From: Candidatus Poribacteria bacterium
GTDB taxonomy: Bacteria; Poribacteria; WGA-4E; WGA-3G
Direction: 5' to 3'
Assembly (NCBI GenBank): GCA_963663765.2
Contig: CAXXUA010000002.1
Span: 237,894-301,893 of the forward strand
DNA length: 64,000 nt
Positions 9,782 to 24,625 of the stretch are shown here, one piece after another. The translations under genes were made by a program, and so were the position numbers. The notes beneath the pieces were generated by a model. The model saw only the letters and a program-made list of their open reading frames with translations, made no database searches and was not told where the DNA came from. Every line of letters begins with the position of its first letter. Position 1 is the first letter of the stretch.

Positions 9782-12700
9782 ATGGCAGAAGCGTCAATTG
9801 AAATATACGGCGCAAGAGAACATAATCTAAATAATATTGACGTGAGACTCCCCAAAGATAAACTCATTGTCTTCACAGGGGTAAGTGGTTCTGGTAAATC
9901 ATCACTTGCAATTGATACACTCTATGCAGAAGGTCAAAGAAGATACATTGAATCACTTTCTGCGTACGCGAGACAGTTCTTAGGACAACTCGGTAAAGCT
10001 GAAGTAGATAGAATTGTTGGGTTGTCACCTTCCATAGCAATTGATCAAGGTTCAACGGGTCATAATCCGCGTTCAACGGTTGCAACCGTAACCGAAATCT
10101 ACGATTATTTTCGTGTGCTTTTTGCGCGCGCAGGTGAATTCCACTGTCTTGAATGTGGTCAGAAGGTGGGATCGCAAACAATCGCGGATATCGTTTCAAA
10201 CATCATGAACCTACCCCAACGTACCCGCATTATGATCTTAGCACCTATCGTCAAAGGCAGACGGGGCGAGTACAGAAAAGAGTTATCAGACGCTCGAAAA
10301 ATGGGATTTATTCGCGCCCGTATTGATGGGGAAATCCACGAAATCAACGCCAACATTGCACTTAATCCAAATCAAAGACACACCATAGACTTGGTAATTG
10401 ATAGAATCATTATTAAGGACGATGTTGAGAGCCGTGTTGCTGAAGCCGTTGAAACGGCTCTCAACATAGGAGACGATATACTCATTGTCAATGTCGTTTC
10501 CTCAGATAATCCTTCTTCCCGAAAGCAATCAAAAGGTGAAGACTTGCTGTTTAGTCGGCAGTATTCTTGCACGAACTGTCAAGTAAGTTATAATATCCCT
10601 GAACCCCGTCATTTTTCTTACAACAGTCCTTACGGTATGTGTGAGCAGTGCCGAGGATTAGGAGTACAAATGGCAATCTCTCCGAAGTTGATTGTTGTTG
10701 ATGATAACTTACCAGTCATGAAAGGTGCTTTACTATTATGGGAAAAACCCGATTTAAACGAGAAGATGATTTTGCAAACGTTAGCAACACACCTCGGATT
10801 CAAACAAAATACGCCATGGAAGGAACTTACACACGAACAACAACATGCAATATTGTATGGTACGGGTGATACATTACTCACTTTTCGTCAACCAACTGTG
10901 AGTAATAGACGTAAGGGAAAACGTGTACGTGGAAGATTTCAAGGACTGATACCAGCACATGAACATCGATACTTATGGTTAGACGTTAATGAAGAGGGGC
11001 ATGGAAACCCTCATTTACCCGATTACTTTGTCAAGTTGCCGTGTAGAGATTGTGACGGAACCCGTTTGAACAATGTAGTAAAAGCAATTACTATAGCAGG
11101 TAAAAACATCACGGAAGTCCTTGATATGTCTATACAGGACTCAGCATCTTTCTTCAATACACTTGAACTACCTGAAAAACAAGCTTTCATAGCTACAGAA
11201 CTCTTGAAAGAAATTCGTTCACGTCTCGGTTTCCTACTGGATGTGGGATTAGGTTATCTCACACTGTCCCGTTCCGCACCAACCTTGTCTGGTGGAGAAG
11301 CACAAAGAATACGTCTTGCAAGCCAAGTTGGTGCAGGACTACGGGATGTTACTTATGTCCTTGACGAACCAAGCATCGGTTTGCACCCTCGCGACCACGC
11401 AGGACTACTAAAGACTTTAATGAACCTACGCAATCAAGGAAATACCGTTATCGTCGTTGAACATGACGAAGCAACTATGTTGGTAGCCGATTGGATAGTA
11501 GATTTCGGTCCCGGTGCAGGAATAAGAGGCGGGGAAATTACCGGTATGGGAACACCTGAGCAAATTATAAATGATAACGACTCACTAACAGCACAATATC
11601 TAAGGGGTGATAAAAAAATTATCCATCCTGAATCACGAAGACCAACAGGCGAAAGATGGGTACAAATCTGCAAAGCACGACAGAATAACCTAAAAGATAT
11701 TAGTCCTAAAATTCCACTCGGAACGCTATGTTGTGTAACAGGGGTTAGCGGTTCTGGGAAAAGTTCTCTTATTCATGACATCCTTTACTGTGCACTCGCA
11801 AGAGACCTGATGAGAGCAAAAACTGTACCCGGAGATTACGGTACAATACAAGGTGTTGTTGATGACAAAGACGTTCCTGTCCCTGAAGTCGTGGACAAAA
11901 TCATCAACATTAATATGGCACCTATCGGACGCACACCACGTTCAAATCCTGCTACATATACAAAGGTATTTGATGCTATCCGAGCTTTCTATACAAACCT
12001 ACCAGATTCCAAACTTCGCGGATATAAACCCGGTCGGTTTAGTTTCAATGTACCCGGTGGACGATGTGAAGCATGCACTGGTAATGGTGCTAAAAAAATT
12101 GACATGGGGATACTCGCAGATGTATGGGTGGAGTGTGATGTCTGCAGTGGAAAAAGATATAACAATGAAACACTTAATATCAAATTTAAAGGGAAAAGTA
12201 TTTCTGATGTCTTACAAATGGACATTGCAACCGCTCTTGAGCATTTCGCAGACATACCCAAAATTGCAAGAGGCTTACAACTGCTTCACGATGTGGGTTT
12301 AGATTACATAAAACTTGGACAACCGGCACCAACCCTTTCTGGTGGGGAAGCACAACGAATTAAACTCTCAAAGGAACTTTCAAAAAGAAGTACCGGTAAA
12401 ACTCTTTATATCCTTGATGAACCTACAACAGGTTTGCACTTTGAAGATGTCAATAAGTTGTTGTCTATTCTGCACAGATTAGTTGATGAAGGCAACACAG
12501 TCGTCGTGGTTGAACACAACCTTGAAGTAATCAATTCTGCAGATTATCTGATCGATTTAGGACCAGAAGGCGGTATGGAAGGCGGAGAAATTGTAGTTGT
12601 CGGCACTCCTGAAGAAGTTATGAATATACCTGAGTCTTATACAGGACAAGCATTGCGTGGAGAATTCGATCTCTGGAAAAACATTGATAAAAAATCCACC

Positions 12701-15502
12701 ATTGCTGAAAATGGCGGCATACCCAAAAACATCCTTGAGGAAACTATTTTCAATGACACTAAGACTATTTCGGTTCAAGGAGCAGAAGAAAATAATCTAA
12801 AAAATATTGACATAGACATACCCCACCAAAGGTTAACCGCATTGACTGGTGTTAGTGGATCAGGTAAGACCTCACTCGCACTTGATACAATATATGCGGA
12901 AGGACAACGCAGGTATATTGAGACACTCAGCACTTATGCACGTCAATTTATCGGAAGCATGGAGAAACCGAAAGTTTCAAAAATAGAAGGACTTTCACCA
13001 GCAATAGCAATCACACACTCAAGTCCAAGCCAAAACCCGCGTTCCACTGTCGCTACAATAACAGAAATACATGACGGTCTCCGTACACTATATGCCCGAT
13101 GGGGACAACCACACTGTCCAGATTGCAATGTTGAAGTCCGACCACAAACAGCGCAACAGATAGTTGAATACGTCTTTAGTCTCATGAAGAATAAACGGGT
13201 TGATGTGATGGCACCGCTTACAAACTTCAAATCTTTTGAAGGTAATGCTGAGGTATTAATAGGCGCAGAACGTACTCCCGGACTAAAAGGTAACGAAGAT
13301 TATGCAGACGCTTTTCGTAGGTTACAAAGAATAGGTTTCGCAAGGGTACAAATTGATGGAGAGATCTTTAGACTTGATGAAACGCCAGAAATCCATAAAC
13401 GTCGCAGGCACGAAGTTTTTCTCGTAATTGACCGCATTCAACTCAACGTTGATGAAAAAAGTAGACTCACAGAAGCAGTAGAATTAGCTCTGATTGAAAG
13501 TGAAGGATTTGTTATTTTAGAGGAAAAAATAGATAAAGAAATACCTAATAGAGTTTTCTTCAGTGAACACGCAATGTGTTCAAACTGTGGACGCAACTTC
13601 CCACAACTTACACCCAGACATTTCTCCTTTAACAATAAATTAGGAGCATGCAGTTCCTGTGATGGTATTGGAAGATCCTCTATAGATCAACAAAACACTT
13701 GTCAAAGATGTAATGGAACACGATTAGATGAATTTCCACGCAACGTCCAATTCTCTGACAAAACAATCGCAGAACTTATGGCAATTTCAATATCTAAGAC
13801 AATAGAATTCTTTGGCACACGAATAAATACAATTGAGAAGCATCTCACGACAGCCGCTGGTTCAAAGGAAGCAAAAGCAGCAATGGAACAAGTCCGAGAC
13901 GTATCTACATCAAGAGCAACACATCCAAAACTTCACTCCCATACTTCACCCGAATTTGAAGCACAACTGTTACGTCAATTACAAATCCGCCTAAAATTCT
14001 TAGAAAATATCGGACTCGGATACCTCGGTTTAGACCGACCCGCACCAACACTTTCTGGGGGAGAAATTAGAAGAATTCGACTCGCAAGTCAACTCGGAAC
14101 TGGTCTAACTGGTGTAACATACATACTTGACGAACCCAGTATCGGATTACACCCACGCGACCAAGAACAACTGATCCTCGCAATGAAGGATTTGCGCGAT
14201 ATAGGAAATAGTGTACTCGTCGTTGAACACGATAAGGATACAATTCTATCAGCAGACCATATCATTGATTTCGGACCAAAAGCAGGAAAACAGGGTGGTG
14301 AAATAATCGCTACCGGTACACCTGAAACCTTCACTGAATCACAACCTATTCCAATTCCTAATTCTAAAAAAACAAACAGCAACTCTGATAAGACAAAGAC
14401 AAAAGCATCTGAAAAGGGATTAACACAAGCTTATCTTTCCAATGAATTGCAAATTCCTGTACCTGCAGTCCGGCGAAAAGGTTCTGGAAAATGGTTGAAA
14501 CTTTTCGGAGCAAAAACAAACAATCTAAAAGACATTGATATAGAAATCCCTTACGGAACGTTTACTTGTGTAACTGGTGTTTCAGGATGTGGAAAAAGTT
14601 CACTGATTGAAGGTACACTCCGACCCGCACTGGAAGACAAACGCTCAATTAGAAAAGGAAACCAAAGTTCAACCAATACTTTTGGGACTCCATTGTATGA
14701 TAAAATCCAAGGAATAACGCCAATTGAACGAATGATACACATAGACCAAAAACCTATAGGTGAAACACCACGGTCTAACCCAGCAACTTACACCGAACTA
14801 TTTACCAAAATCCGTGAAATGTTTGCTGAATTACCTGATGCAAAACGTCGTGGATTTAACAGAGGAAGGTTTAGTTTCAATCTATCTTATGGGCAGTGTG
14901 AAGAGTGTGACGGACACCGTTACAATCGCATAGAGATGCATTTCTTACCAGATGTATGGATACCGTGCGAAAACTGCAACAGCACAGGATACAACGCTGA
15001 AACGCTTGAAGTAAGGTACAAAGGTAAGAATATCGCAGAAGTTCTACAAATGACGGTACAAGAAGCTCTTGACCTATTTAGTAATATTGCAAGAATAAAA
15101 CGACCACTTCAAACATTAGCAGATGTCGGTTTAGACTATATTCAATTAGGACAAGCAGCCACTACACTCTCCGGTGGAGAAGCACAACGCGTCAAACTCG
15201 CAAAAGAATTAGCACGTCGTCAAACAGGTACCACGCTCTATATCATGGATGAACCAACAACGGGTTTGCATTTTGATGACGTTCAAAAGCTGCTCAACGT
15301 ACTCAACAAACTTGTTGATGCAGGCAACACGATTGTTGCTATAGAACACAATCTGGATGTTATCAAATCTGCTGATTGGCTAATAGATTTGGGACCAGAA
15401 GGAAGTGACGCCGGTGGTTATATTGTTGCAATGGGTACTCCTGAAGAAGTTGCAGAGAACAAAGAATCACACACCGCACGTTTCCTCAGTAAGATATTAT
15501 AG
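9782..15502 (+). CDS. uvrA: Excinuclease ABC subunit A, internally duplicated (1906 aa)
   Basis: Two complete UvrA modules, four Walker A motifs, repeated NPRSTVAT and LSGGE. Confidence 0.95.
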   Translation: MAEASIEIYGAREHNLNNIDVRLPKDKLIVFTGVSGSGKSSLAIDTLYAEGQRRYIESLSAYARQFLGQLGKAEVDRIVGLSPSIAIDQGSTGHNPRSTVATVTEIYDYFRVLFARAGEFHCLECGQKVGSQTIADIVSNIMNLPQRTRIMILAPIVKGRRGEYRKELSDARKMGFIRARIDGEIHEINANIALNPNQRHTIDLVIDRIIIKDDVESRVAEAVETALNIGDDILIVNVVSSDNPSSRKQSKGEDLLFSRQYSCTNCQVSYNIPEPRHFSYNSPYGMCEQCRGLGVQMAISPKLIVVDDNLPVMKGALLLWEKPDLNEKMILQTLATHLGFKQNTPWKELTHEQQHAILYGTGDTLLTFRQPTVSNRRKGKRVRGRFQGLIPAHEHRYLWLDVNEEGHGNPHLPDYFVKLPCRDCDGTRLNNVVKAITIAGKNITEVLDMSIQDSASFFNTLELPEKQAFIATELLKEIRSRLGFLLDVGLGYLTLSRSAPTLSGGEAQRIRLASQVGAGLRDVTYVLDEPSIGLHPRDHAGLLKTLMNLRNQGNTVIVVEHDEATMLVADWIVDFGPGAGIRGGEITGMGTPEQIINDNDSLTAQYLRGDKKIIHPESRRPTGERWVQICKARQNNLKDISPKIPLGTLCCVTGVSGSGKSSLIHDILYCALARDLMRAKTVPGDYGTIQGVVDDKDVPVPEVVDKIININMAPIGRTPRSNPATYTKVFDAIRAFYTNLPDSKLRGYKPGRFSFNVPGGRCEACTGNGAKKIDMGILADVWVECDVCSGKRYNNETLNIKFKGKSISDVLQMDIATALEHFADIPKIARGLQLLHDVGLDYIKLGQPAPTLSGGEAQRIKLSKELSKRSTGKTLYILDEPTTGLHFEDVNKLLSILHRLVDEGNTVVVVEHNLEVINSADYLIDLGPEGGMEGGEIVVVGTPEEVMNIPESYTGQALRGEFDLWKNIDKKSTIAENGGIPKNILEETIFNDTKTISVQGAEENNLKNIDIDIPHQRLTALTGVSGSGKTSLALDTIYAEGQRRYIETLSTYARQFIGSMEKPKVSKIEGLSPAIAITHSSPSQNPRSTVATITEIHDGLRTLYARWGQPHCPDCNVEVRPQTAQQIVEYVFSLMKNKRVDVMAPLTNFKSFEGNAEVLIGAERTPGLKGNEDYADAFRRLQRIGFARVQIDGEIFRLDETPEIHKRRRHEVFLVIDRIQLNVDEKSRLTEAVELALIESEGFVILEEKIDKEIPNRVFFSEHAMCSNCGRNFPQLTPRHFSFNNKLGACSSCDGIGRSSIDQQNTCQRCNGTRLDEFPRNVQFSDKTIAELMAISISKTIEFFGTRINTIEKHLTTAAGSKEAKAAMEQVRDVSTSRATHPKLHSHTSPEFEAQLLRQLQIRLKFLENIGLGYLGLDRPAPTLSGGEIRRIRLASQLGTGLTGVTYILDEPSIGLHPRDQEQLILAMKDLRDIGNSVLVVEHDKDTILSADHIIDFGPKAGKQGGEIIATGTPETFTESQPIPIPNSKKTNSNSDKTKTKASEKGLTQAYLSNELQIPVPAVRRKGSGKWLKLFGAKTNNLKDIDIEIPYGTFTCVTGVSGCGKSSLIEGTLRPALEDKRSIRKGNQSSTNTFGTPLYDKIQGITPIERMIHIDQKPIGETPRSNPATYTELFTKIREMFAELPDAKRRGFNRGRFSFNLSYGQCEECDGHRYNRIEMHFLPDVWIPCENCNSTGYNAETLEVRYKGKNIAEVLQMTVQEALDLFSNIARIKRPLQTLADVGLDYIQLGQAATTLSGGEAQRVKLAKELARRQTGTTLYIMDEPTTGLHFDDVQKLLNVLNKLVDAGNTIVAIEHNLDVIKSADWLIDLGPEGSDAGGYIVAMGTPEEVAENKESHTARFLSKIL

Positions 15503-15579: not shown

Positions 15580-15944
15580 CAGGGTTATTTAGTTTTAGTA
15601 GTTTTTGCAGATATTTATAACATTCGTGAATTAGATGTGTAGGTCGGGTAGAGCGATAGCGAAACCCATAGGTGTCAACTTAAGAAAAAAGTGTTGGCAT
15701 ATTCTCTTGTGGGAGGGGTTTGTAACCCCGATTTGAGTGGAAATGAACATAAAATCGGGGTTGCAAACCCCTCCCACAAGAGGTCAGAATCCTTAAGTTG
15801 ACACCTATGGGTAGAGCGATAGCGAAACCCGACATGTATTGATTGTAGTTGTCATGTCGGGTTTCGCTATCGCTCTACCCGACCTACGATATAAACTTAA
15901 AGTAACACCCATCAACTGATAATTCTTAAAACTAAATAACCCTG
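15580..15944. mobile_element. MITE family A copy containing a nested family E element
   Basis: CAGGGTTATTTAGTTTT...AAAACTAAATAACCCTG; flanks ATGTCTAAT / CTGTCTAAT (8 of 9 match). Confidence 0.85.
15667..15809. mobile_element. MITE family E inserted in a REP-like hairpin
   Basis: TIR CATAGGTGTCAACTTAAG; 20-bp direct repeat GGTAGAGCGATAGCGAAACC (15647-15666 and 15810-15829); empty-site homolog at about 42053-42140. Confidence 0.88.
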
Positions 15945-15961
15945 CTGTCTAATTCTATTAG

Positions 15962-15990
15962 TTGACCTAATTCTTCATTTGTGCTATGAT
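15962..15990 (+). promoter_or_regulatory. Putative sigma70 promoter of the ferredoxin-GGR operon
   Basis: TTGACC-17 bp-TATGAT with extended -10 TG. Confidence 0.6.
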
Positions 15991-16029
15991 TCTTACACTT
16001 ACAAGGATAATTAGAAAACAAAGCTGAAT

Positions 16030-16248
16030 ATGATACATATTAACGAAGAACTTTGCGTTTATTGTGGGGCATGCGTTGCAGTCTGTCCCGAAAATATTAT
16101 TGACTTGATAGACACACATCTGAAAATTGACCAACCCAAGTGCATTGACTGTATGAAATGCGTCAAAGGCTGCCCGATTGGTGTTCTTTCTATGGAACGG
16201 AACGGAAAGATTTATTCTTTCGATTATCCCGAGAGAGGACTTTTCTGA
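16030..16248 (+). CDS. 2[4Fe-4S] ferredoxin
   Basis: Two CxxCxxCxxxCP motifs (CVYCGACVAVCP, CIDCMKCVKGCP). Confidence 0.92.
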   Translation: MIHINEELCVYCGACVAVCPENIIDLIDTHLKIDQPKCIDCMKCVKGCPIGVLSMERNGKIYSFDYPERGLF

Positions 16249-16275
16249 TAAAGAGTGCTGTAGAGAGAAGTATAG

Positions 16276-17469
16276 ATGCTACATTCAGAGTATGATGTCA
16301 TTGCTGTTGGGGCGGGACCAGGTGGTTCTATCGCAGCAAAAGTTGCCGCTGAAAATGGTTTGCGGGTTCTCCTTTTAGAGAAACGGCAAGAAATAGGCGT
16401 ACCACTCCGCTGAGCTGAAGGTATTGGCACAGAGGATCTGTGCGAATTTATTCAGCCAGACGCGGCATGGATATCAAATGAGATCCACGGGGCACGTATT
16501 TTCTCCCCTAACGAGACTGCAGTCACAATTCATCAACCAGGCGCAGGTTACGTCTTAGAACGAAAGGTGTTTGATCTCCGTCTTGCGGAGATGGCATCAA
16601 ACTCGGGTGCCGAGGTTATGGTAAAGGCACGTGTTACAAATGTCACTTTCTCTGAAGCTGGTGCTGTGAACGGTGTCGTATTCCGACATTCAGGACGCGA
16701 ATATACGTGCAAAAGCAAGATAGTTATCGCTGCGGATGGGGTTGAATCGCAAGTTGGACGGTGGGCAGGTATTGATACTACCCACCAACTACGTGATATT
16801 GGTGCTTGTGCCCAGTATCTCATTTCAAACATTGATATTATGCCTGAGTACTGTGATTTTTACTTCGGGCGCGAGGTTGCTCCACTTGGTTATGTTTGGG
16901 TTTTTCCAAAAGGGAAAGACATCGCAAACGTTGGGGTCGGCGTTAGGGCAAATATTTCAGGAAAAGACAGCAAACTTGCTATAGACTACCTAAACGCATT
17001 TGTCAAACGGAAGTTCCCGGAGGGTAAAGTTTTAGGATTAGTGTGCGGTGCGGTTCCTGTCGGACAAGGTTTGCCGCGGATTGTCGGGGATGGCATTCTG
17101 CTTGTTGGCGACGCAGCACATCACAGCGATCCAGTCTCTGGAGGAGGTATCCCTAACGCAATGTATTCTGGGAAATTTGCAGCGGAAGCAGCGGTCAAGG
17201 CTATACACATCGGTGATGTCTCACGAGATATTCTCAGCGCATATTCAAAACGTTGGGACCGCGAAATCGGTAAACACTTTAAGCATATCTGTCGCATCCG
17301 CGATGGAGTTTTAAAATTCAATGACGATACACTTGATAGATATGCAGAACTACTTTCTCAGATACATGGTGAACCGTTAACGTTGGCAAAGATCTTCCAA
17401 ACAGTACTTAAAAATCAACCAAGTTTGCTTCTTGAACTCCGACACCTCATTTTAGCTGGATGGGTTTAG
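16276..17469 (+). CDS. Geranylgeranyl reductase (DGGGPL reductase-like) family flavoprotein, probable selenoprotein (UGA codon 46 at 16411-16413), 397 aa
   Basis: ATG 16276 gives [13 protein letters not shown]...[20 protein letters not shown]..., in frame with ORF 16567..17469, which carries [14 protein letters not shown] and LVGDAA...GGGI. Confidence 0.88.
16414..16456 (+). promoter_or_regulatory. Bacterial SECIS-like hairpin
   Basis: GCTGAA/TTCAGC lower stem, GCACAGA/TCTGTGC upper stem, apical GGA loop starting 20 nt after the UGA. Confidence 0.8.
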
Positions 17470-17613
17470 CACCTCTCTTAAAAAGCGTAAAGGTAAACTT
17501 ACTCTAACATCCCCAATTTCTTTATTGGTTTATCAACTTCCAAATTTCCTCTTGACAAAACCTACAATACATGGAATTATAATAACTATATCATTCATAT
17601 AGATTATTTTACC

Positions 17614-18501
17614 ATGCAAATTCCAAACTACTATCAAATCTTAGAGATCAGTCGTGATGCGACTACGACCGAAATAAAAAGTTCATTCAGAAAACTGGCA
17701 AAACGATACCATCCCGATAAACAAAACCTCAACAATAACGCAGATGTTGTAGCAAAAGCAAAACAGATGTTCGGTAAGGTTTGCAATGCTTATGATGTGC
17801 TACATGACGAAAAACGCAAAGCTGACTATGACCGTAAACTACAGAACCTTGAACGTCAGCAGCAATCATACAGCTCATATTTTGACAGACTCAATAAACT
17901 GAATCAAGATTATGCAAAAATAGAATTACTATTCCAAGCACTCTTACATCAGAACTACGAAACAGGTATCTCGTTATATGAGCAACTATGTAATAGACGT
18001 GCGCAAAACGGGAAAAAATGGTGTATAGATGATTTTTTCAATTACGAAGATAGCAGAGATTGCGAATTTCTTATTGCAGAAGCATACCAATATCTCGCTT
18101 TTACAAACGGAAATGGTTCTGATTCGGAACGACATCGAAAAATAGAATTAGCAATGCGTATCTATGAATCTTTGTTGTCTGCAGAAGGACGAAGACCCTG
18201 TTTCAAGCACTTCATAAATGAGGTAAAAGATCGTCTCAAGAAAATCTACCTCTATTATTATAGTGTTGAAGGATACCAACAAACACAACAAATTCCATTA
18301 TCAAAGATACGCACATTAAGACTTCCTAAACGAGAAACTGCATGGATGTATAAAAAGATTGCTGAATTCTATGTTGAAATAGACTTGTTCCCACATGCTC
18401 GACAGGTTCTGCTCATGGCATTTGAACTACAACCCAATCTTGCTGGTGCAAAGAAGATTTGTAGGATTTTAAACATTGCAAACCAGCAAGTAGTTTATTG
18501 A
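17614..18501 (+). CDS. J-domain (DnaJ-like) protein with TPR-like C-terminus
   Basis: NYYQILEI...FRKLAKRYHPDK...AYDVL. Confidence 0.85.
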   Translation: MQIPNYYQILEISRDATTTEIKSSFRKLAKRYHPDKQNLNNNADVVAKAKQMFGKVCNAYDVLHDEKRKADYDRKLQNLERQQQSYSSYFDRLNKLNQDYAKIELLFQALLHQNYETGISLYEQLCNRRAQNGKKWCIDDFFNYEDSRDCEFLIAEAYQYLAFTNGNGSDSERHRKIELAMRIYESLLSAEGRRPCFKHFINEVKDRLKKIYLYYYSVEGYQQTQQIPLSKIRTLRLPKRETAWMYKKIAEFYVEIDLFPHARQVLLMAFELQPNLAGAKKICRILNIANQQVVY

Positions 18502-18880: not shown

Positions 18881-21568
18881 ATGCCTTTACCTCCTGATTT
18901 TCCTGAATCTCCACATGCGATTATTGACCCTTCAGTTCGTTGGACACCAGATGCTACCCAATTGTCCTTATTGGGTAGTGCCATGTTACTCCCTCCACTT
19001 GTTCAAAAACTACGGGAGGCGGTTAAGACATGGCGTAACGACAACTACAAAGGTGCCTCGGAAACAAGTAAAGCACTGCTCAATTGGTGGTTCAAGACAC
19101 CACACCTGCAAGAACAGTCTGATGGGACAACATCAGAATTTCAATATTACTTTGCCCAACGTGAAGCACTTGAAACTATTGTTTACCTATATGATGTCAT
19201 CAAGGTAAAGGACAAGTACGATTTGATGAGCTTTGACAGTTCAGGTTTTGTTTCGGCAGGAATGTTTGACGAAGATTGGAAACGGTTTGTCATAAAAATG
19301 GCAACAGGCACAGGCAAAACAAAGGTGATGAGTCTTGCTATCGCTTGGAGTTTCTTCCACAAGCTGTATGAATCCGACTCCGATCTCTCCCGCAATTTCC
19401 TTGTCATCGCTCCTAATATCATTGTACTTGACCGTCTTTATAAAGATTTTAAAGGATTAGACATTTTTTTTCAAGACCCAGTACTGCCAAATAACGGTTT
19501 TGAAGGTCATGATTGGCGAAACGATTTTCAACTCACCTTGCATGTGCAGGACGAAGTGCGTACTATCCGATCTACTGGGAACATCTTTCTCACTAATATT
19601 CACCGTGTTTATTCCAGCGACCAAACCCCGCCTTCTCCCGACGATGAGGATAGTAAAGATTATTACTTGGGTGAAAAACCGACTGGAGCAACCACAGATT
19701 CAAAAGTAGACCTCGGAGATATAGTCCGTGATATTGACGAATTGATGGTACTTAACGATGAAGCACATCATATCCATGATCCTCGAATGGCATGGTTCAA
19801 GTCAATCGAGGATATTCATAATCGGCTTGTGCAGAAAGACAGTGAGTTATCATTACAGCTTGACGTAACTGCAACCCCAAAGCATAATAACGGTGCAATC
19901 TTTGTTCAAACTGTAGCAGATTACCCACTTGTAGAGGCTATTTCGCAAGATGTCGTTAAACATCCTATTCTTCCAAATGATGAAAGCAGAAAGAAACTTG
20001 AAGAGAAGCAGAGTGTGAAGTTTACAGAGAGATACGCGGACTATCTACACCTCGGTGTGGTTGAGTGGCGAAAAGCGTCCGAAAGACACGAAAAATTGGG
20101 TAAGAAAGCCATTCTGTTTGTGATGACCGATGATACCAAAAACTGTGATGAGGTAGCAACTTATCTTGAAAACCGTTACCAAGACTTAAGAGATGCTGTG
20201 CTGGTGATTCATACAAAGAATAATGGTGAAATCTCTGAGGCGACATCTGGTAAGAAAAAGGAGGAACTTGAGGAACTCCGAAAGCAAGCGAATGAGATCG
20301 ATTTAGCGATAGACAAAAACCCATATAAGGCAATTGTCTCCGTTTTAATGCTCAAAGAGGGGTGGGATGTAAAGAACGTTACCACAATTGTAGGGCTTCG
20401 CGCTTATACCGCAGCGAGTAATATTTTACCAGAACAGACGCTTGGACGTGGACTTAGACGAATGTATAACAATTCAGTGGATGAGTCTGTGAGTGTCATC
20501 GGCACTGAAGTCTTCATGGAATTTGTTGAAAAGATCCAAGAGGAAGGAGTTGAATTAGAACGTAAAGAAATGGGAGAAGGCACAGAACCCATAGCACCCC
20601 TTGTAATTGAGGTTGACAAGGAAAATGTGGACAAAGACATTGGCGCGCTTGATATTGATATACCGATATTGACACGACGCGTCTATCGTGAATATAAGCA
20701 TCTTGCACACTTAGATGTTAACAGCCTTGACTTCAAACCTATATTGTATTTGACGTTTGGTGTAGATCAGTTACGAGAGATTGAATTCCATTATATGACA
20801 ACAAGTGAGGTTGCACACACAACTATTTTGGAAAGTCCGGGGGCAGAAGACTACCGAAACGCTCTCGGTTATTTTGCACAAACTCTTATGAAGGAACTCC
20901 GACTCGTCGGCGGTTATGATGTACTTTATGCTAAGGTAAAAGAATTTGTTCAGCATTATCTCTTTGGTGAAACGGTGGCATTAGACGATCCCATCACCAT
21001 AAAAAATCTCGCTGAACTCCGCGCCACAAAAACAATTATTGAAACATTCAAACGTGCAATAAATGACCTTACAGTCCAGGACAAAGGAAATGCTAATCTA
21101 AGCGAAACCACCAAAATTAGCAGCACAAGACCTTTTATGGTGAAAGACCAAGAACACTTAGTACCGAAAAAATCAGTGTTCAACATTATCACTGGCGATA
21201 GTCATTTGGAATTGGAATTTGCCAAATTTCTGGAGGAGTGCCCGGACGTTGTATCCTATACAAAAAACTATTATGGGGTGCAGTTTAAACTTGATTATGT
21301 GAATGCCGATGGTGATATTTCTAACTACTATCCCGATTTTATCGTTAAACTGATGGATGGAAGTGTGATTATCGTTGAAACTAAGGGATTAGAAGACTTA
21401 GACGTACCGCTCAAGATGCAACGCCTGTCGCAATGGTGCAAGGATGTTAACAATATCTCAGAAGATGTGACTCATGACTTTGTTTATGTTGATGAGGAGA
21501 GTTTCAGGGTATATCAACCGACAACATTTCAGCAACTGCTTGATGGTTTTACCGAATACAAACCGTAG
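18881..21568 (+). CDS. Type III restriction enzyme Res subunit (SF2 helicase plus PD-(D/E)xK nuclease)
   Basis: MATGTGKT, NDEAHH, TATP, LKEGWDV, QTLGRGLR, YYPDF..VETKG motifs. Confidence 0.9.
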   Translation: MPLPPDFPESPHAIIDPSVRWTPDATQLSLLGSAMLLPPLVQKLREAVKTWRNDNYKGASETSKALLNWWFKTPHLQEQSDGTTSEFQYYFAQREALETIVYLYDVIKVKDKYDLMSFDSSGFVSAGMFDEDWKRFVIKMATGTGKTKVMSLAIAWSFFHKLYESDSDLSRNFLVIAPNIIVLDRLYKDFKGLDIFFQDPVLPNNGFEGHDWRNDFQLTLHVQDEVRTIRSTGNIFLTNIHRVYSSDQTPPSPDDEDSKDYYLGEKPTGATTDSKVDLGDIVRDIDELMVLNDEAHHIHDPRMAWFKSIEDIHNRLVQKDSELSLQLDVTATPKHNNGAIFVQTVADYPLVEAISQDVVKHPILPNDESRKKLEEKQSVKFTERYADYLHLGVVEWRKASERHEKLGKKAILFVMTDDTKNCDEVATYLENRYQDLRDAVLVIHTKNNGEISEATSGKKKEELEELRKQANEIDLAIDKNPYKAIVSVLMLKEGWDVKNVTTIVGLRAYTAASNILPEQTLGRGLRRMYNNSVDESVSVIGTEVFMEFVEKIQEEGVELERKEMGEGTEPIAPLVIEVDKENVDKDIGALDIDIPILTRRVYREYKHLAHLDVNSLDFKPILYLTFGVDQLREIEFHYMTTSEVAHTTILESPGAEDYRNALGYFAQTLMKELRLVGGYDVLYAKVKEFVQHYLFGETVALDDPITIKNLAELRATKTIIETFKRAINDLTVQDKGNANLSETTKISSTRPFMVKDQEHLVPKKSVFNIITGDSHLELEFAKFLEECPDVVSYTKNYYGVQFKLDYVNADGDISNYYPDFIVKLMDGSVIIVETKGLEDLDVPLKMQRLSQWCKDVNNISEDVTHDFVYVDEESFRVYQPTTFQQLLDGFTEYKP

Positions 21569-21599
21569 TGATAAAGCTCTCAATAACCATTCTCATTTT

Positions 21600-21628
21600 T
21601 TGACAAACACCACATTTTTTGATACAAT
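21600..21628 (+). promoter_or_regulatory. Internal sigma70 promoter within the RM locus
   Basis: TTGACA-17 bp-TACAAT, 8 nt before ATG 21637. Confidence 0.6.
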
Positions 21629-21636
21629 AATAGATT

Positions 21637-22113
21637 ATGAAAAACTTAAATTGGGTTCTGGCCAGCTTGCTAGTACTTGTTGCTCTGGGGATATCAGTTT
21701 TAGTCGTGTACACAACAACCACAAGAACTTTAACCGCTGTAGAAAGTACCATTTGGCAGGTCTTTGTCCTTACTGCAGGACTTGCAGGTTCTTTTATTTT
21801 TGGTCGACAGTCGGCTCGTGAAGCTGCAAGAGAAATGATTAAGCCACATGCCAAGTCTGCATTCAGACGACTTGTTTCTTTATACGAAAGTCTTTCCCGA
21901 GCTTCAAATGAAATAGAATTGACAGAGAGTTCAGAATCTTCTGAAGACATTCGAGTAACAATTGCTAAACTTGACGCAATTGTTACTGAGCAACTAAACG
22001 CAGCAGATGATGCGTTAGAAGATTGGAGAGACATTGTTCCAGAAGACGTAGAAGAGTTAAAACAGAAACTTGAATCAAAAATACAAGGAGGGATTGGTAG
22101 TGACACAAACTAA
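21637..22113 (+). CDS. Hypothetical protein, two TM helices plus coiled-coil
   Basis: Two N-terminal hydrophobic segments and an acidic helical tail. Confidence 0.7.
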   Translation: MKNLNWVLASLLVLVALGISVLVVYTTTTRTLTAVESTIWQVFVLTAGLAGSFIFGRQSAREAAREMIKPHAKSAFRRLVSLYESLSRASNEIELTESSESSEDIRVTIAKLDAIVTEQLNAADDALEDWRDIVPEDVEELKQKLESKIQGGIGSDTN

Positions 22114-22477
22114 ACCAATTCGTGGTAAAGTAGCACGAATTTTGACCGAAAGGGCACTCGTAATAAATATAGGTGAGGTAGATGGTGTAAATTACGGTAT
22201 GGAGTTTTATATCTCAAACATTATTCCGGTAATAGATCCTGATACGTCTAAAGAAATAGGTAAGGTTGATTGGCCTATTGTTTATTTATACGTTAATGAT
22301 GTTCAAGAACATATAACTGTTTTATTCTCAAAAGACAAACCTTTGTTCTCAGGAGACAAGGGTTCATTTAGTAAATCTCTATTATCTTCAAGTAGAGCAT
22401 TTGTAAATATTGGAGATCCTGTCGTACAAGTCTTTGAAACAGACGAACCAGAACAGAAAGACTCCAACGTGAATTAA
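22100..22477 (+). CDS. Hypothetical beta-rich protein (FlgT C-terminal-like)
   Basis: GKVARI..LVINIG..DGV..GM.F..IDPDT.KEIG pattern; GGAGG RBS before GTG 22100. Confidence 0.6.
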   Translation: MTQTKPIRGKVARILTERALVINIGEVDGVNYGMEFYISNIIPVIDPDTSKEIGKVDWPIVYLYVNDVQEHITVLFSKDKPLFSGDKGSFSKSLLSSSRAFVNIGDPVVQVFETDEPEQKDSNVN

Positions 22478-22489
22478 CGAAGGATATCC

Positions 22490-24625
22490 ATGCCACGACT
22501 CACCGAATCAGAACAACAAGAAATTATCCGCTATCTTGAAGCAGACAAACCGCTGCCCGAAAAATACCGCTTTTTGCTGTTTGAAGATAAGCGCGAAGTA
22601 GAACTCGTTTGGAACGGCAAGACTAACGAAGTTTGCAACATCGTGCTTCCATTCCAGACTATTGAACACGTAGACGAACCCCGGACAGAAAAACCCACTG
22701 AAGATAACCTGCAACTCGATTTATTTGACACGCGCGGCCGCCAACGCAAAGGCTGGACAAACAAGTTGATCTGGGGTGATAACAAATTAGTTTTATCATC
22801 ACTCAAGAACGGACCGCTGCGTGAGGAAATTGAAGCACAAGGCGGACTAAAACTTATCTATATTGACCCGCCGTTTGACGTAGGTGCGGATTTTTCTATG
22901 GATATTGAGATTGGCGGCGAAACGCTTACCAAAAACGCTAATATCCTTGAAGAAATAGCCTACCGCGACACATGGGGTAAAGGTGCTGATTCTTTTATTG
23001 CCATGATTTATGAGCGGTTGATTCTGATGCGGGATTTACTTACAGAGGACGGCAGTATTTATGTGCATTGCGATTGGCGTGTGAATAGTCACATTCGTTT
23101 AGCTTTAGATGAAGCGTTTAGAAATAATTTTGAACGGGAAGTAATTTGGTCATTTGATACAAAATCAGGATACAAATCTGCAGTTACGAATTGGGTAAGA
23201 AGTCATGATACAATTCTTTTTTATTCAAAAAATCACGATAAAAAAATCTTCAATAAACAATTTACACCGTATGATGATAAGTATTTAGAGAGGTTCAAAA
23301 GTGTTGATGCTGATGGCAGAAAATATCGAGATGACAGGGGAAATGGAAAAAAACAGTACCTTGATGAACTTCAAGGGATAGCCATTCCAGATGTATGGAG
23401 AGACATTAAATCTTTTCAACAAGATGCTACATCTGACGAATATTTGAATTATCCTACTCAAAAAAGGGAGGCCCTACTTGAACGCATCATCAAAGCATCT
23501 TCTAATGAAGGTGACCTTGTTGCAGACTTCTTCTGTGGTTCTGGTACTACCGCCGCTGTTGCTGAAAAACTTGGACGTAAATGGATTATCACAGACCTCG
23601 GCAAGTTTGCCATTCACACCACACGCAAACGGATGATCAGGGTGCAACGTCAACGCAAAGTGGACGGTGAAGACTATCGCGCTTTTGAGATTCTCAATCT
23701 CGGCAAGTATGAACGCCAACATTATATCGGTGTTAATCCAAATCTGCGCGAAGTTGAACAGCAGAAACAGTTAGAGGAAAAGGAAAAGATGTTTATTGAG
23801 CTTATCCTGCGTGCTTATTCAGCCGAAAAAGCGGAAGGTTTTGCCAGTTTTCAGGGTAAAAAAGCGGGAAGGCTTATCGCAATCGGTCCTGTCAATTTAC
23901 CTGTAACACGTCTGTTCATAGAGGAAATTATCCTTGAATGCCGTAAGCATCAGATTACCCGTGTTGACGTTCTCGGCTTTGAGTTTGAGATGGGGTTGTT
24001 TCCTAATGTGTTGCAGGAAGCGAAAAACAAAGGTATTGACCTTGCACCGAAATATATCCCTGCCGAAGTATTTGATAAGCGTGCAGTGGAGCAGAAGCAG
24101 GTTGTTTTTCACGATGTGGCGTTTATTGAAGTTAAACCTCATGTGACAGCAGCAGAAGGAGATAAACCCGCTACGGTAAAGGTAGAATTGACCGATTTTT
24201 CTGTCTTTTATTCACAGGATTCTATCTCACACGCTGAGCAGACATTAAAGAATAAGGGTAGTAAAATCGTTGTGGAGAAAGGGAAAGTCGTAAAAGTTAG
24301 CAAAGATGCTGAAGGTAATACTACGCGAGAAACATTAACCAAAGAGTGGACAGACTGGATAGACTACTGGTCAGTTGATTTTGATTTTGAGAGCAAACGC
24401 GAAATTATCCGTGTGCAGAATCCCGACACGGATGAGTGGGAAGAGCAGTGGTCAGGTGACTTTATCTTTGAAAATGAGTGGCAAAGTTTCCGCACCAAGA
24501 AGGATCGTTCTTTGGAATTAACGAGTATTGCTTACGAATGCGAACCTCGTCCCCGCAAAATCGCTGTTAAAGTTGTAGACATTTTCGGTAATGATACGAT
24601 GACTATTGTAGAGGTGAACATTTGA
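22490..24625 (+). CDS. Type III RM Mod subunit (N6-adenine DNA methyltransferase)
   Basis: LIWGDN, IYIDPPF, YPTQK, DFFCGSGTT motifs. Confidence 0.92.
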   Translation: MPRLTESEQQEIIRYLEADKPLPEKYRFLLFEDKREVELVWNGKTNEVCNIVLPFQTIEHVDEPRTEKPTEDNLQLDLFDTRGRQRKGWTNKLIWGDNKLVLSSLKNGPLREEIEAQGGLKLIYIDPPFDVGADFSMDIEIGGETLTKNANILEEIAYRDTWGKGADSFIAMIYERLILMRDLLTEDGSIYVHCDWRVNSHIRLALDEAFRNNFEREVIWSFDTKSGYKSAVTNWVRSHDTILFYSKNHDKKIFNKQFTPYDDKYLERFKSVDADGRKYRDDRGNGKKQYLDELQGIAIPDVWRDIKSFQQDATSDEYLNYPTQKREALLERIIKASSNEGDLVADFFCGSGTTAAVAEKLGRKWIITDLGKFAIHTTRKRMIRVQRQRKVDGEDYRAFEILNLGKYERQHYIGVNPNLREVEQQKQLEEKEKMFIELILRAYSAEKAEGFASFQGKKAGRLIAIGPVNLPVTRLFIEEIILECRKHQITRVDVLGFEFEMGLFPNVLQEAKNKGIDLAPKYIPAEVFDKRAVEQKQVVFHDVAFIEVKPHVTAAEGDKPATVKVELTDFSVFYSQDSISHAEQTLKNKGSKIVVEKGKVVKVSKDAEGNTTRETLTKEWTDWIDYWSVDFDFESKREIIRVQNPDTDEWEEQWSGDFIFENEWQSFRTKKDRSLELTSIAYECEPRPRKIAVKVVDIFGNDTMTIVEVNI

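Follow-up and report, generated by a model that had tools for sequence, protein, structure and literature searches.

A Predicted Selenocysteine, Directed by a Conserved Hairpin, in a Geranylgeranyl-Reductase Family Flavoprotein of Candidatus Poribacteria

Introduction

A flavoprotein gene of the geranylgeranyl-reductase (GGR) family, located on the plus strand at positions 16276 to 17469 of a 64,000-nucleotide stretch of Candidatus Poribacteria DNA (hereafter the window, meaning the whole stretch analyzed), holds an in-frame UGA at 16411-16413, and the hairpin that follows this codon is very likely a true bacterial SECIS directing the insertion of selenocysteine (Sec) at codon 46. Read through, the gene has 397 codons and would encode a protein resembling DGGGPL reductase. 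We also hold it to be rather probable, with less assurance, that in one sponge-associated order of Poribacteria this Sec-GGR and a ferredoxin saturate the bacterium's own archaeal-type ether lipids, which would make it the first selenoenzyme in the synthesis of isoprenoid membrane lipids, that the exchange of Cys for Sec speaks for a redox role of the residue, and that the SECIS arose through the rewriting of residues 51-56. The present analysis contributes the hairpin test, one origin for Sec-GGR and its lipid gene cluster.

A Sec-GGR would bring a carbon-carbon double-bond reductase of lipid synthesis into a selenoproteome made up mainly of thiol and metal redox proteins. Together with the Cys-type GGRs of close relatives, which are 59-64% identical, it would provide a ready natural comparison for the role of the conserved Cys. 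The family moreover records the birth of a SECIS inside coding sequence, with one origin, hairpin-free Cys outgroups and later compensatory changes. Annotation is corrected as well, because the 56 close database proteins all begin only past the UGA, and ether-lipid genes of archaeal type are pointed to in most Poribacteria.

GGR is absent from Table 1 of a 2026 review, which covers 119 prokaryotic selenoprotein families and names no C=C-reducing or lipid-biosynthetic enzyme, and the word “geranylgeranyl” does not occur in the available text of that review (PMC13188914). The CoA-disulfide reductase-like proteins (TIGR03385) and type III sulfide:quinone reductases (NF049943) are likewise flavoproteins in which Sec replaces a redox Cys (PMC13188914), but they are other families with sulfur substrates, and neither is among the best 25 NCBIfam matches of the GGR. 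The string “geranyl” is also absent from the main texts of deep-Sep (with its four supplements), BSepDB and SelCysML. Open-access full-text papers pairing selenoprotein or selenocysteine with GGR, DGGGPL reductase or Poribacteria yielded, by their listings, nothing on a Sec-GGR. With respect to the lipids, Poribacteria are treated in a 2026 preprint on the ether lipids of sponges, whose available text lacks the word “geranylgeranyl” (10.64898/2026.06.23.733905); Poribacteria are not mentioned in the main text of the ether-lipid paper PMC7852524, and the available texts of both sources make no mention of archaeal-type ether lipids in Poribacteria.

A GGR-Family Gene with a UGA at Codon 46

The frame opened by the ATG at 16276 contains a single TGA, at codon 46, in the context P-L-R-U-A-E-G, where U denotes the predicted Sec. 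The translation scores 237.9 bits on TIGR02032 (cut-off 158.8) and scores highest on the model of the Thermoplasmatales DGGGPL reductase, with 300.6 bits vs. 87.8 on that of MenJ. It lies under the cut-off of every DGGGPL-reductase equivalog (NF041160, 300.6 against 780 bits; NF041080, 180 against 580; NF041385, 95.7 against 700); it likely works as these equivalogs do, though it is not filed as a member. Residues 5-392 align with PDB 3oz2 (E 2e-81), and the Sulfolobus GGR (3atq/4opc) is matched at E 2e-31. Codon 46 aligns with the Cys of an R-C-G-E-G stretch in 3oz2 and with the matching Cys of the Sulfolobus GGR. This Cys (Cys45/Cys47) lies behind the FAD ring, is conserved in active GGRs and is essential in the Sulfolobus enzyme (PMC6309074; PMC10821996), and its role, whether in electron transfer or in flavin tuning, was called speculative in a 2024 review (PMC10821996). 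Alignment to 3oz2, read with these papers, places the predicted residue 46 at the active-site Cys of GGR.

The protein carries the GxGxxG, RxxFD, PxxYxWxFP, LxGD and GGG motifs described for GGRs (PMC10821996; PMC6309074), and R96, F99, D100, P203, Y206, W208, F210, P211, G278, D279 and G289-291 are invariant in 41 aligned sequences. The T. acidophilum protein of 3oz2 and the S. acidocaldarius GGR share this full-length alignment and these motifs with the Poribacteria GGR, which differs from the archaeal enzymes in its UGA (predicted Sec) at the Cys45/Cys47 position and in its bacterial host. No second GGR paralogue was found in this genome by tblastn. Among 23 orthologues, amino-acid identity is 84.5% over the 44 codons before the UGA and 71.7% after it; the better conservation of the upstream part is what one expects of an N-terminus that is translated, not of a pseudogene. 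A contig from a public run (library not on record) spans 15916-17650 with 0 differences, a weak check on sequencing error given that this run may be the source sample. In contigs from RNA libraries, which span 16283-16471, neither the UGA nor the hairpin has a listed change, and two of these data sets, X1 and X2, look like one; the contigs are weak evidence for transcription of the gene and do not prove it.

The Hairpin Downstream of the UGA

The original prediction had described a stem-loop immediately behind the UGA, and its sequence and coordinates were borne out. In this genome the extended hairpin occupies 16414-16456 (plus strand). Its basal helix pairs 16414-16419 with 16451-16456, the partly paired middle that had been noted consists of three pairs (16423-16425/16445-16447), and the upper stem (16427-16433/16437-16443), claimed as a perfect 7-bp helix, does form seven Watson-Crick pairs. 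The small loop was described as opening with a G located 20 nt after the UGA; it reads GGA (16434-16436, plus strand), and this first G is the predicted SelB contact. Folding with RNAfold, which had been proposed as a check, returned the same three-helix hairpin as both MFE and centroid structure, at -21.1 kcal/mol. The hairpin has a z of -5.26, and none of 200 shuffles was equally stable; it was kept in an 81-nt context (z -5.57), and its upper part alone has an energy of -10.8 kcal/mol. In a recoding control that held the peptide fixed and redrew the codons by genome usage (n = 3000), one recoding was as stable as the native hairpin, and seven Watson-Crick upper pairs arose in four recodings, or in 196 when G-U pairs were counted.

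The bSECIS model calls for an apical loop of 3-9 nt on an upper stem of 4-16 bp, a G within the first two loop positions that is often followed by G or U, a UGA-to-loop distance of 16-37 nt and a folding energy at or below -7.5 kcal/mol (PMC13188914). The present hairpin lies inside all four bounds, with its 3-nt loop on a 7-bp stem, its GGA, its 20 nt and its -21.1 kcal/mol. With the bSECIS consensus it shares a position in the coding region after an in-frame UGA, a 3-nt loop starting with GG and a 7-bp upper stem, and it shows no departure from that consensus, the lower stem being the part that is not conserved in the GGR family (PMC13188914). The SECIS is, in short, an ordinary member of its class. 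A home-made SECIS filter passes 38 of the 44 UGA homologues and also 11 of 79 Cys genes; applied to the long ORFs of this genome that end in TGA, it passes 26 of 457 in its loose form and 4 of 457 in its strict form. Comparison with other selenoprotein UGAs of the genome, likewise proposed at the outset, was favorable: a hairpin loop with an early G lies 19-22 nt past the UGA in 9 of 12 other in-frame-TGA genes, and the geometry of the GGR hairpin resembles that of the genome's own Prx-like, Rdx and SelD genes.

Candidate selenoproteins are abundant in this genome, at 11 recorded loci on five contigs: nine of 24 AhpC-TSA matches, an Rdx gene and a DUF3179 gene each contain one in-frame TGA. 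In six of these genes, a stem of 6-7 bp bears a 3-nt loop 21 nt past the UGA.

Conservation and Covariation of the Hairpin

Hairpins were counted over distinct sequences, 44 with UGA and 79 with Cys, matches below 35% identity having been dropped. The upper hairpin, which the original prediction expected in TGA-bearing homologues and not equally often in Cys-type ones, retains 6-7 of its 7 pairs in 44/44 UGA sequences and only 0-5 in 79/79 Cys sequences. The first loop base is G in every UGA sequence, as against 33 of the 79 with Cys. The gene selA was found in nine of 13 Cys-type Poribacteria genomes, and yet these are without the hairpin. The claim of a perfect 6-bp basal stem stands for this genome and not for the family, in that the present gene alone among the 44 UGA sequences has it complete; one of the basal pairs is formed by just 1 of 30 sequences. 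The basal stem was accordingly rejected as part of the signal. Over 30 distinct rows, the fraction of cells paired is 71% in the basal stem, 79% in the middle and 98.1% in the upper stem. RNAalifold likewise finds a consensus in the upper stem only, and the functional element is therefore placed at about 16427-16443 (plus strand), a conserved SECIS core of a 7-bp stem and a 3-nt loop; the partly conserved basal 6 bp and middle 3 bp are probably accessory.

Covariation had been anticipated at synonymous sites. It is present in the upper stem, but largely at non-synonymous sites, where residues change and the stem is kept. Three pairs changed on both sides, and there are 19 doubly changed cells in the 30 distinct rows. 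None of 500 shuffles reached the paired fraction, the doubly-changed-cell count or the covariation score of the upper stem, and two of the five measures fell short of significance, namely the number of doubly changed pairs (94 of 500 shuffles) and that of pair types (201 of 500); the 44 UGA sequences descend from one event and are therefore not independent, so that these shuffle controls overstate. Slid controls for the upper stem were 10-61% paired. The loop-closing pair is found as C-G, A-U and U-A, swaps that alter residues 53-54, and further compensatory changes in the stem alter residues 52 and 56. At one pair, A-U became G-C in separate subclades (L157, L176, L177 and L041/L042). Among 23 sequences compared pairwise, and thus not independently, the difference at four-fold sites is 0.11 over codons 51-56 vs. 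0.63 over codons 2-45 and 0.67 over codons 57-135.

Distribution and Origin of the Sec Form

The N-terminal 100 residues of the GGR are matched in 54 of 176 Poribacteria genomes. The TGA is present in all 41 matching genomes of the gene's own order and in none of the 13 from other Poribacteria orders; where codon 46 was read directly, it was TGA in 40/40 own-order genomes and TGC or TGT in 13/13 others, and outside Poribacteria all 68 loci have Cys. Every one of the closest named relatives (72-80% identity) belongs to Ca. Poribacteria. For a tree, 48 sequences were chosen (24 Sec, 10 Cys-type Poribacteria and 14 others, with Sec residue 46 entered as X and near-duplicates left out), and in it the Sec GGRs form one clade with support of 100/99, nested among Cys-type Poribacteria. 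This distribution is accounted for by a single predicted replacement of Cys with Sec at the root of one Poribacteria order. In a degenerate-motif scan of metagenome contigs, at least 120 stretches were found, of which at least 15 are GGR; among the matches listed there was no Sec-GGR from outside this clade, the listed GGRs all showing 65-83% identity to the query and 6-7 pairs in the stem. Of the best 120 database proteins, the 56 with at least 65% identity all start past the UGA; among the remaining 64, Cys occupies position 46 in 63; and U is found in none of the 120.

The gene is dispensable: in one family (f1) only 15 of 111 relatives have it. Some copies are broken or reduced, with frameshifts in two genomes (G016 and G040), an extra TAG in a third (G134) and a short remnant in a fourth (G037), reflecting either decay or assembly error.

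Selenocysteine Machinery and the Reading of UGA

The genome encodes selA, selB and selD, all over their cut-offs, and selD itself has an in-frame TGA. A single tRNA-Sec gene, the one match over the RF01852 cut-off, lies directly after selB; no second selC-like tRNA was found over that cut-off in a genome that is 97.8% complete, a level at which a missed tRNA is possible. The sole tRNA-Cys is ordinary, at 75 nt, and a relaxed ARAGORN search for extra UGA or Cys tRNAs gave 3738 matches and was uninformative. Among UGA genomes, selA was found in 39 of 41, the two misses being assemblies of 300 and 730 contigs. One genome, G016, has no selA match. Global reassignment of UGA was rejected, TGA ending 457 of 2438 long ORFs. 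By analogy with known bacterial Sec decoding, SelB-GTP-Sec-tRNA would bind the G-containing loop as the ribosome arrives at the UGA, and the Sec so delivered would enter codon 46.

These observations bear on other readings of the codon and of the stem. SECIS-dependent decoding of UGA as Cys does exist, in work that concerns hydrogenases (PMC13582414), and the ancestral residue at position 46 was Cys; the signal might thus be of SECIS type and serve a tRNA of the SelC* or tRNA-ReC-like kind, or a leaky Trp or Cys reading, in an enzyme without selenium. We regard this as very improbable, considering that only one tRNA passes the tRNA-Sec model, that the tRNA-Cys is unexceptional, that selA and selD are present and that TGA is not globally reassigned. 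We give scarcely any credence to a true stop, under which the gene would be a pseudogene or a split gene with a later start and the hairpin a product of chance or of the protein sequence. Gene callers do start past the UGA in all of the close database proteins, and many relatives have lost the gene or carry a broken copy, but the same single TGA is kept over four families at 66-82% identity with the remaining frame open, the best-conserved part precedes it and carries the FAD-binding GxGxxG, and the stem has constrained silent sites and keeps its pairs while its residues change. No more credible is a stem that acts as intrinsic terminator or attenuator to adjust expression past a real stop. 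The scan that flags 16427-16443 as terminator-like found two sites where 1.6 +/- 1.5 were expected, the T-rich tail is broken up and differs between homologues, and a terminator would have no need of a loop G that never varies and keeps its distance to the UGA; the RNA-library contigs also span both sides of the stem, a weak point given that DNA may be present. Selenocysteine insertion directed by a SECIS is the reading we carry forward.

Ferredoxin, Ether-Lipid Genes and the Probable Substrate

Directly upstream of the GGR lies a gene for a dicluster-type 4Fe-4S ferredoxin of 72 aa (16030-16248, plus strand), the predicted electron donor, and a ferredoxin gene occupies this position in most related loci. 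Euryarchaeal GGR loci adjoin a ferredoxin gene in the same way (PMC10821996; PMC9385802), and a rise in GGR activity through ferredoxin is reported for E. coli (PMC9385802). 4Fe-4S domains are also present in many Cys-type homologues of about 470 aa; these GGR-ferredoxin fusions support the electron-donor link. The ferredoxin gene ends in a double stop, UGA then UAA (16246-16251). Upstream of it, a sigma-70-like promoter match (15962-15990, plus strand; 10/12, extended -10) is weak evidence, from a scan that gave 8 sites vs. 4.1 +/- 2.2 in shuffles.

Relatives carry the genes in the order DGGGP synthase, ferredoxin, GGR and GGGP synthase, which recurs in Sec and Cys Poribacteria. A GGGP synthase gene is present in 41/41 UGA genomes and stands directly downstream of GGR in 27. 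In this genome the GGR is split from the synthase genes, which sit on another contig, where the GGGP synthase is over its TIGR01769 cut-off and the DGGGP-synthase-like gene is under its own (230 vs. 296 bits). Across the phylum, 144 of 176 genomes have GGGP synthase and 142 have the DGGGP-synthase-like gene, and the reductase would therefore be an optional last step. Loss is patchy in family f1, where 101 of 111 relatives keep GGGP synthase; with the reductase mostly missing there, most of them would make unsaturated lipids. CarS was not found in this genome. No clear G1P dehydrogenase was found either, and this step is left unassigned because the Fe-ADH family gave weak matches only. Together these genes suggest archaeal-type ether lipids in the phylum Poribacteria. 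FCB-group bacteria (Ca. Cloacimonetes) likewise have a GGGP synthase and a DGGGP synthase of bacterial hosts together with a euryarchaeal-like GGR; the Ca. Cloacimonetes synthases have been shown to work, and CarS is missing there too; in comparison with that pathway, the Poribacteria genes often form one cluster with ferredoxin, and the reductase carries a UGA (PMC7852524).

Given read-through, DGGGP or a lipid derived from it is the probable substrate. A selenoprotein acting on some other prenyl group, such as a menaquinone side chain or a polyprenol, is a less likely outcome that nonetheless deserves weight: the prenyl compounds used by GGR paralogues are diverse (PMC10821996; PMC6309074), this genome has an MqnP-like prenyltransferase, no DGGGPL equivalog cut-off is reached, and GGR is found in far fewer Poribacteria genomes than is GGGP synthase (54 as against 144). 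Against it, the best models and the best structure are DGGGPL reductases, the lipid gene order recurs in both Sec and Cys Poribacteria, and in one genus (g6) GGGPS, DGGGPS and GGR occur together in the same one of 20 genomes (G090), the other 19 having none of the three. With a DGGGP-type substrate, family precedent and gene order would have the neighboring ferredoxin reduce the FAD of GGR, Sec46 sit behind the flavin in the redox-modulating role of Cys, and the enzyme saturate the geranylgeranyl chains of archaeal-type ether lipids. More speculatively, Sec may give faster flavin reduction or oxygen tolerance.

Additional Features of the Window

Several other features adjoin the GGR locus. The 1906-aa ORF at 9782-15502 presumably comprises two tandem UvrA-like units. 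Between uvrA and the ferredoxin gene, at 15580-15944, lies a nested palindromic element with a perfect outer inverted repeat of 18 nt and inner arms of 28-42 nt, which is probably a REP- or MITE-like repeat; contig depth is high over this interval, as expected of a multicopy element. Beyond the GGR, a gene at 17614-18501 contains a DnaJ domain by scan and is followed by two large ORFs (18881-24625) that read as a putative type III restriction-modification pair, comprising a helicase-like subunit and a methyltransferase.
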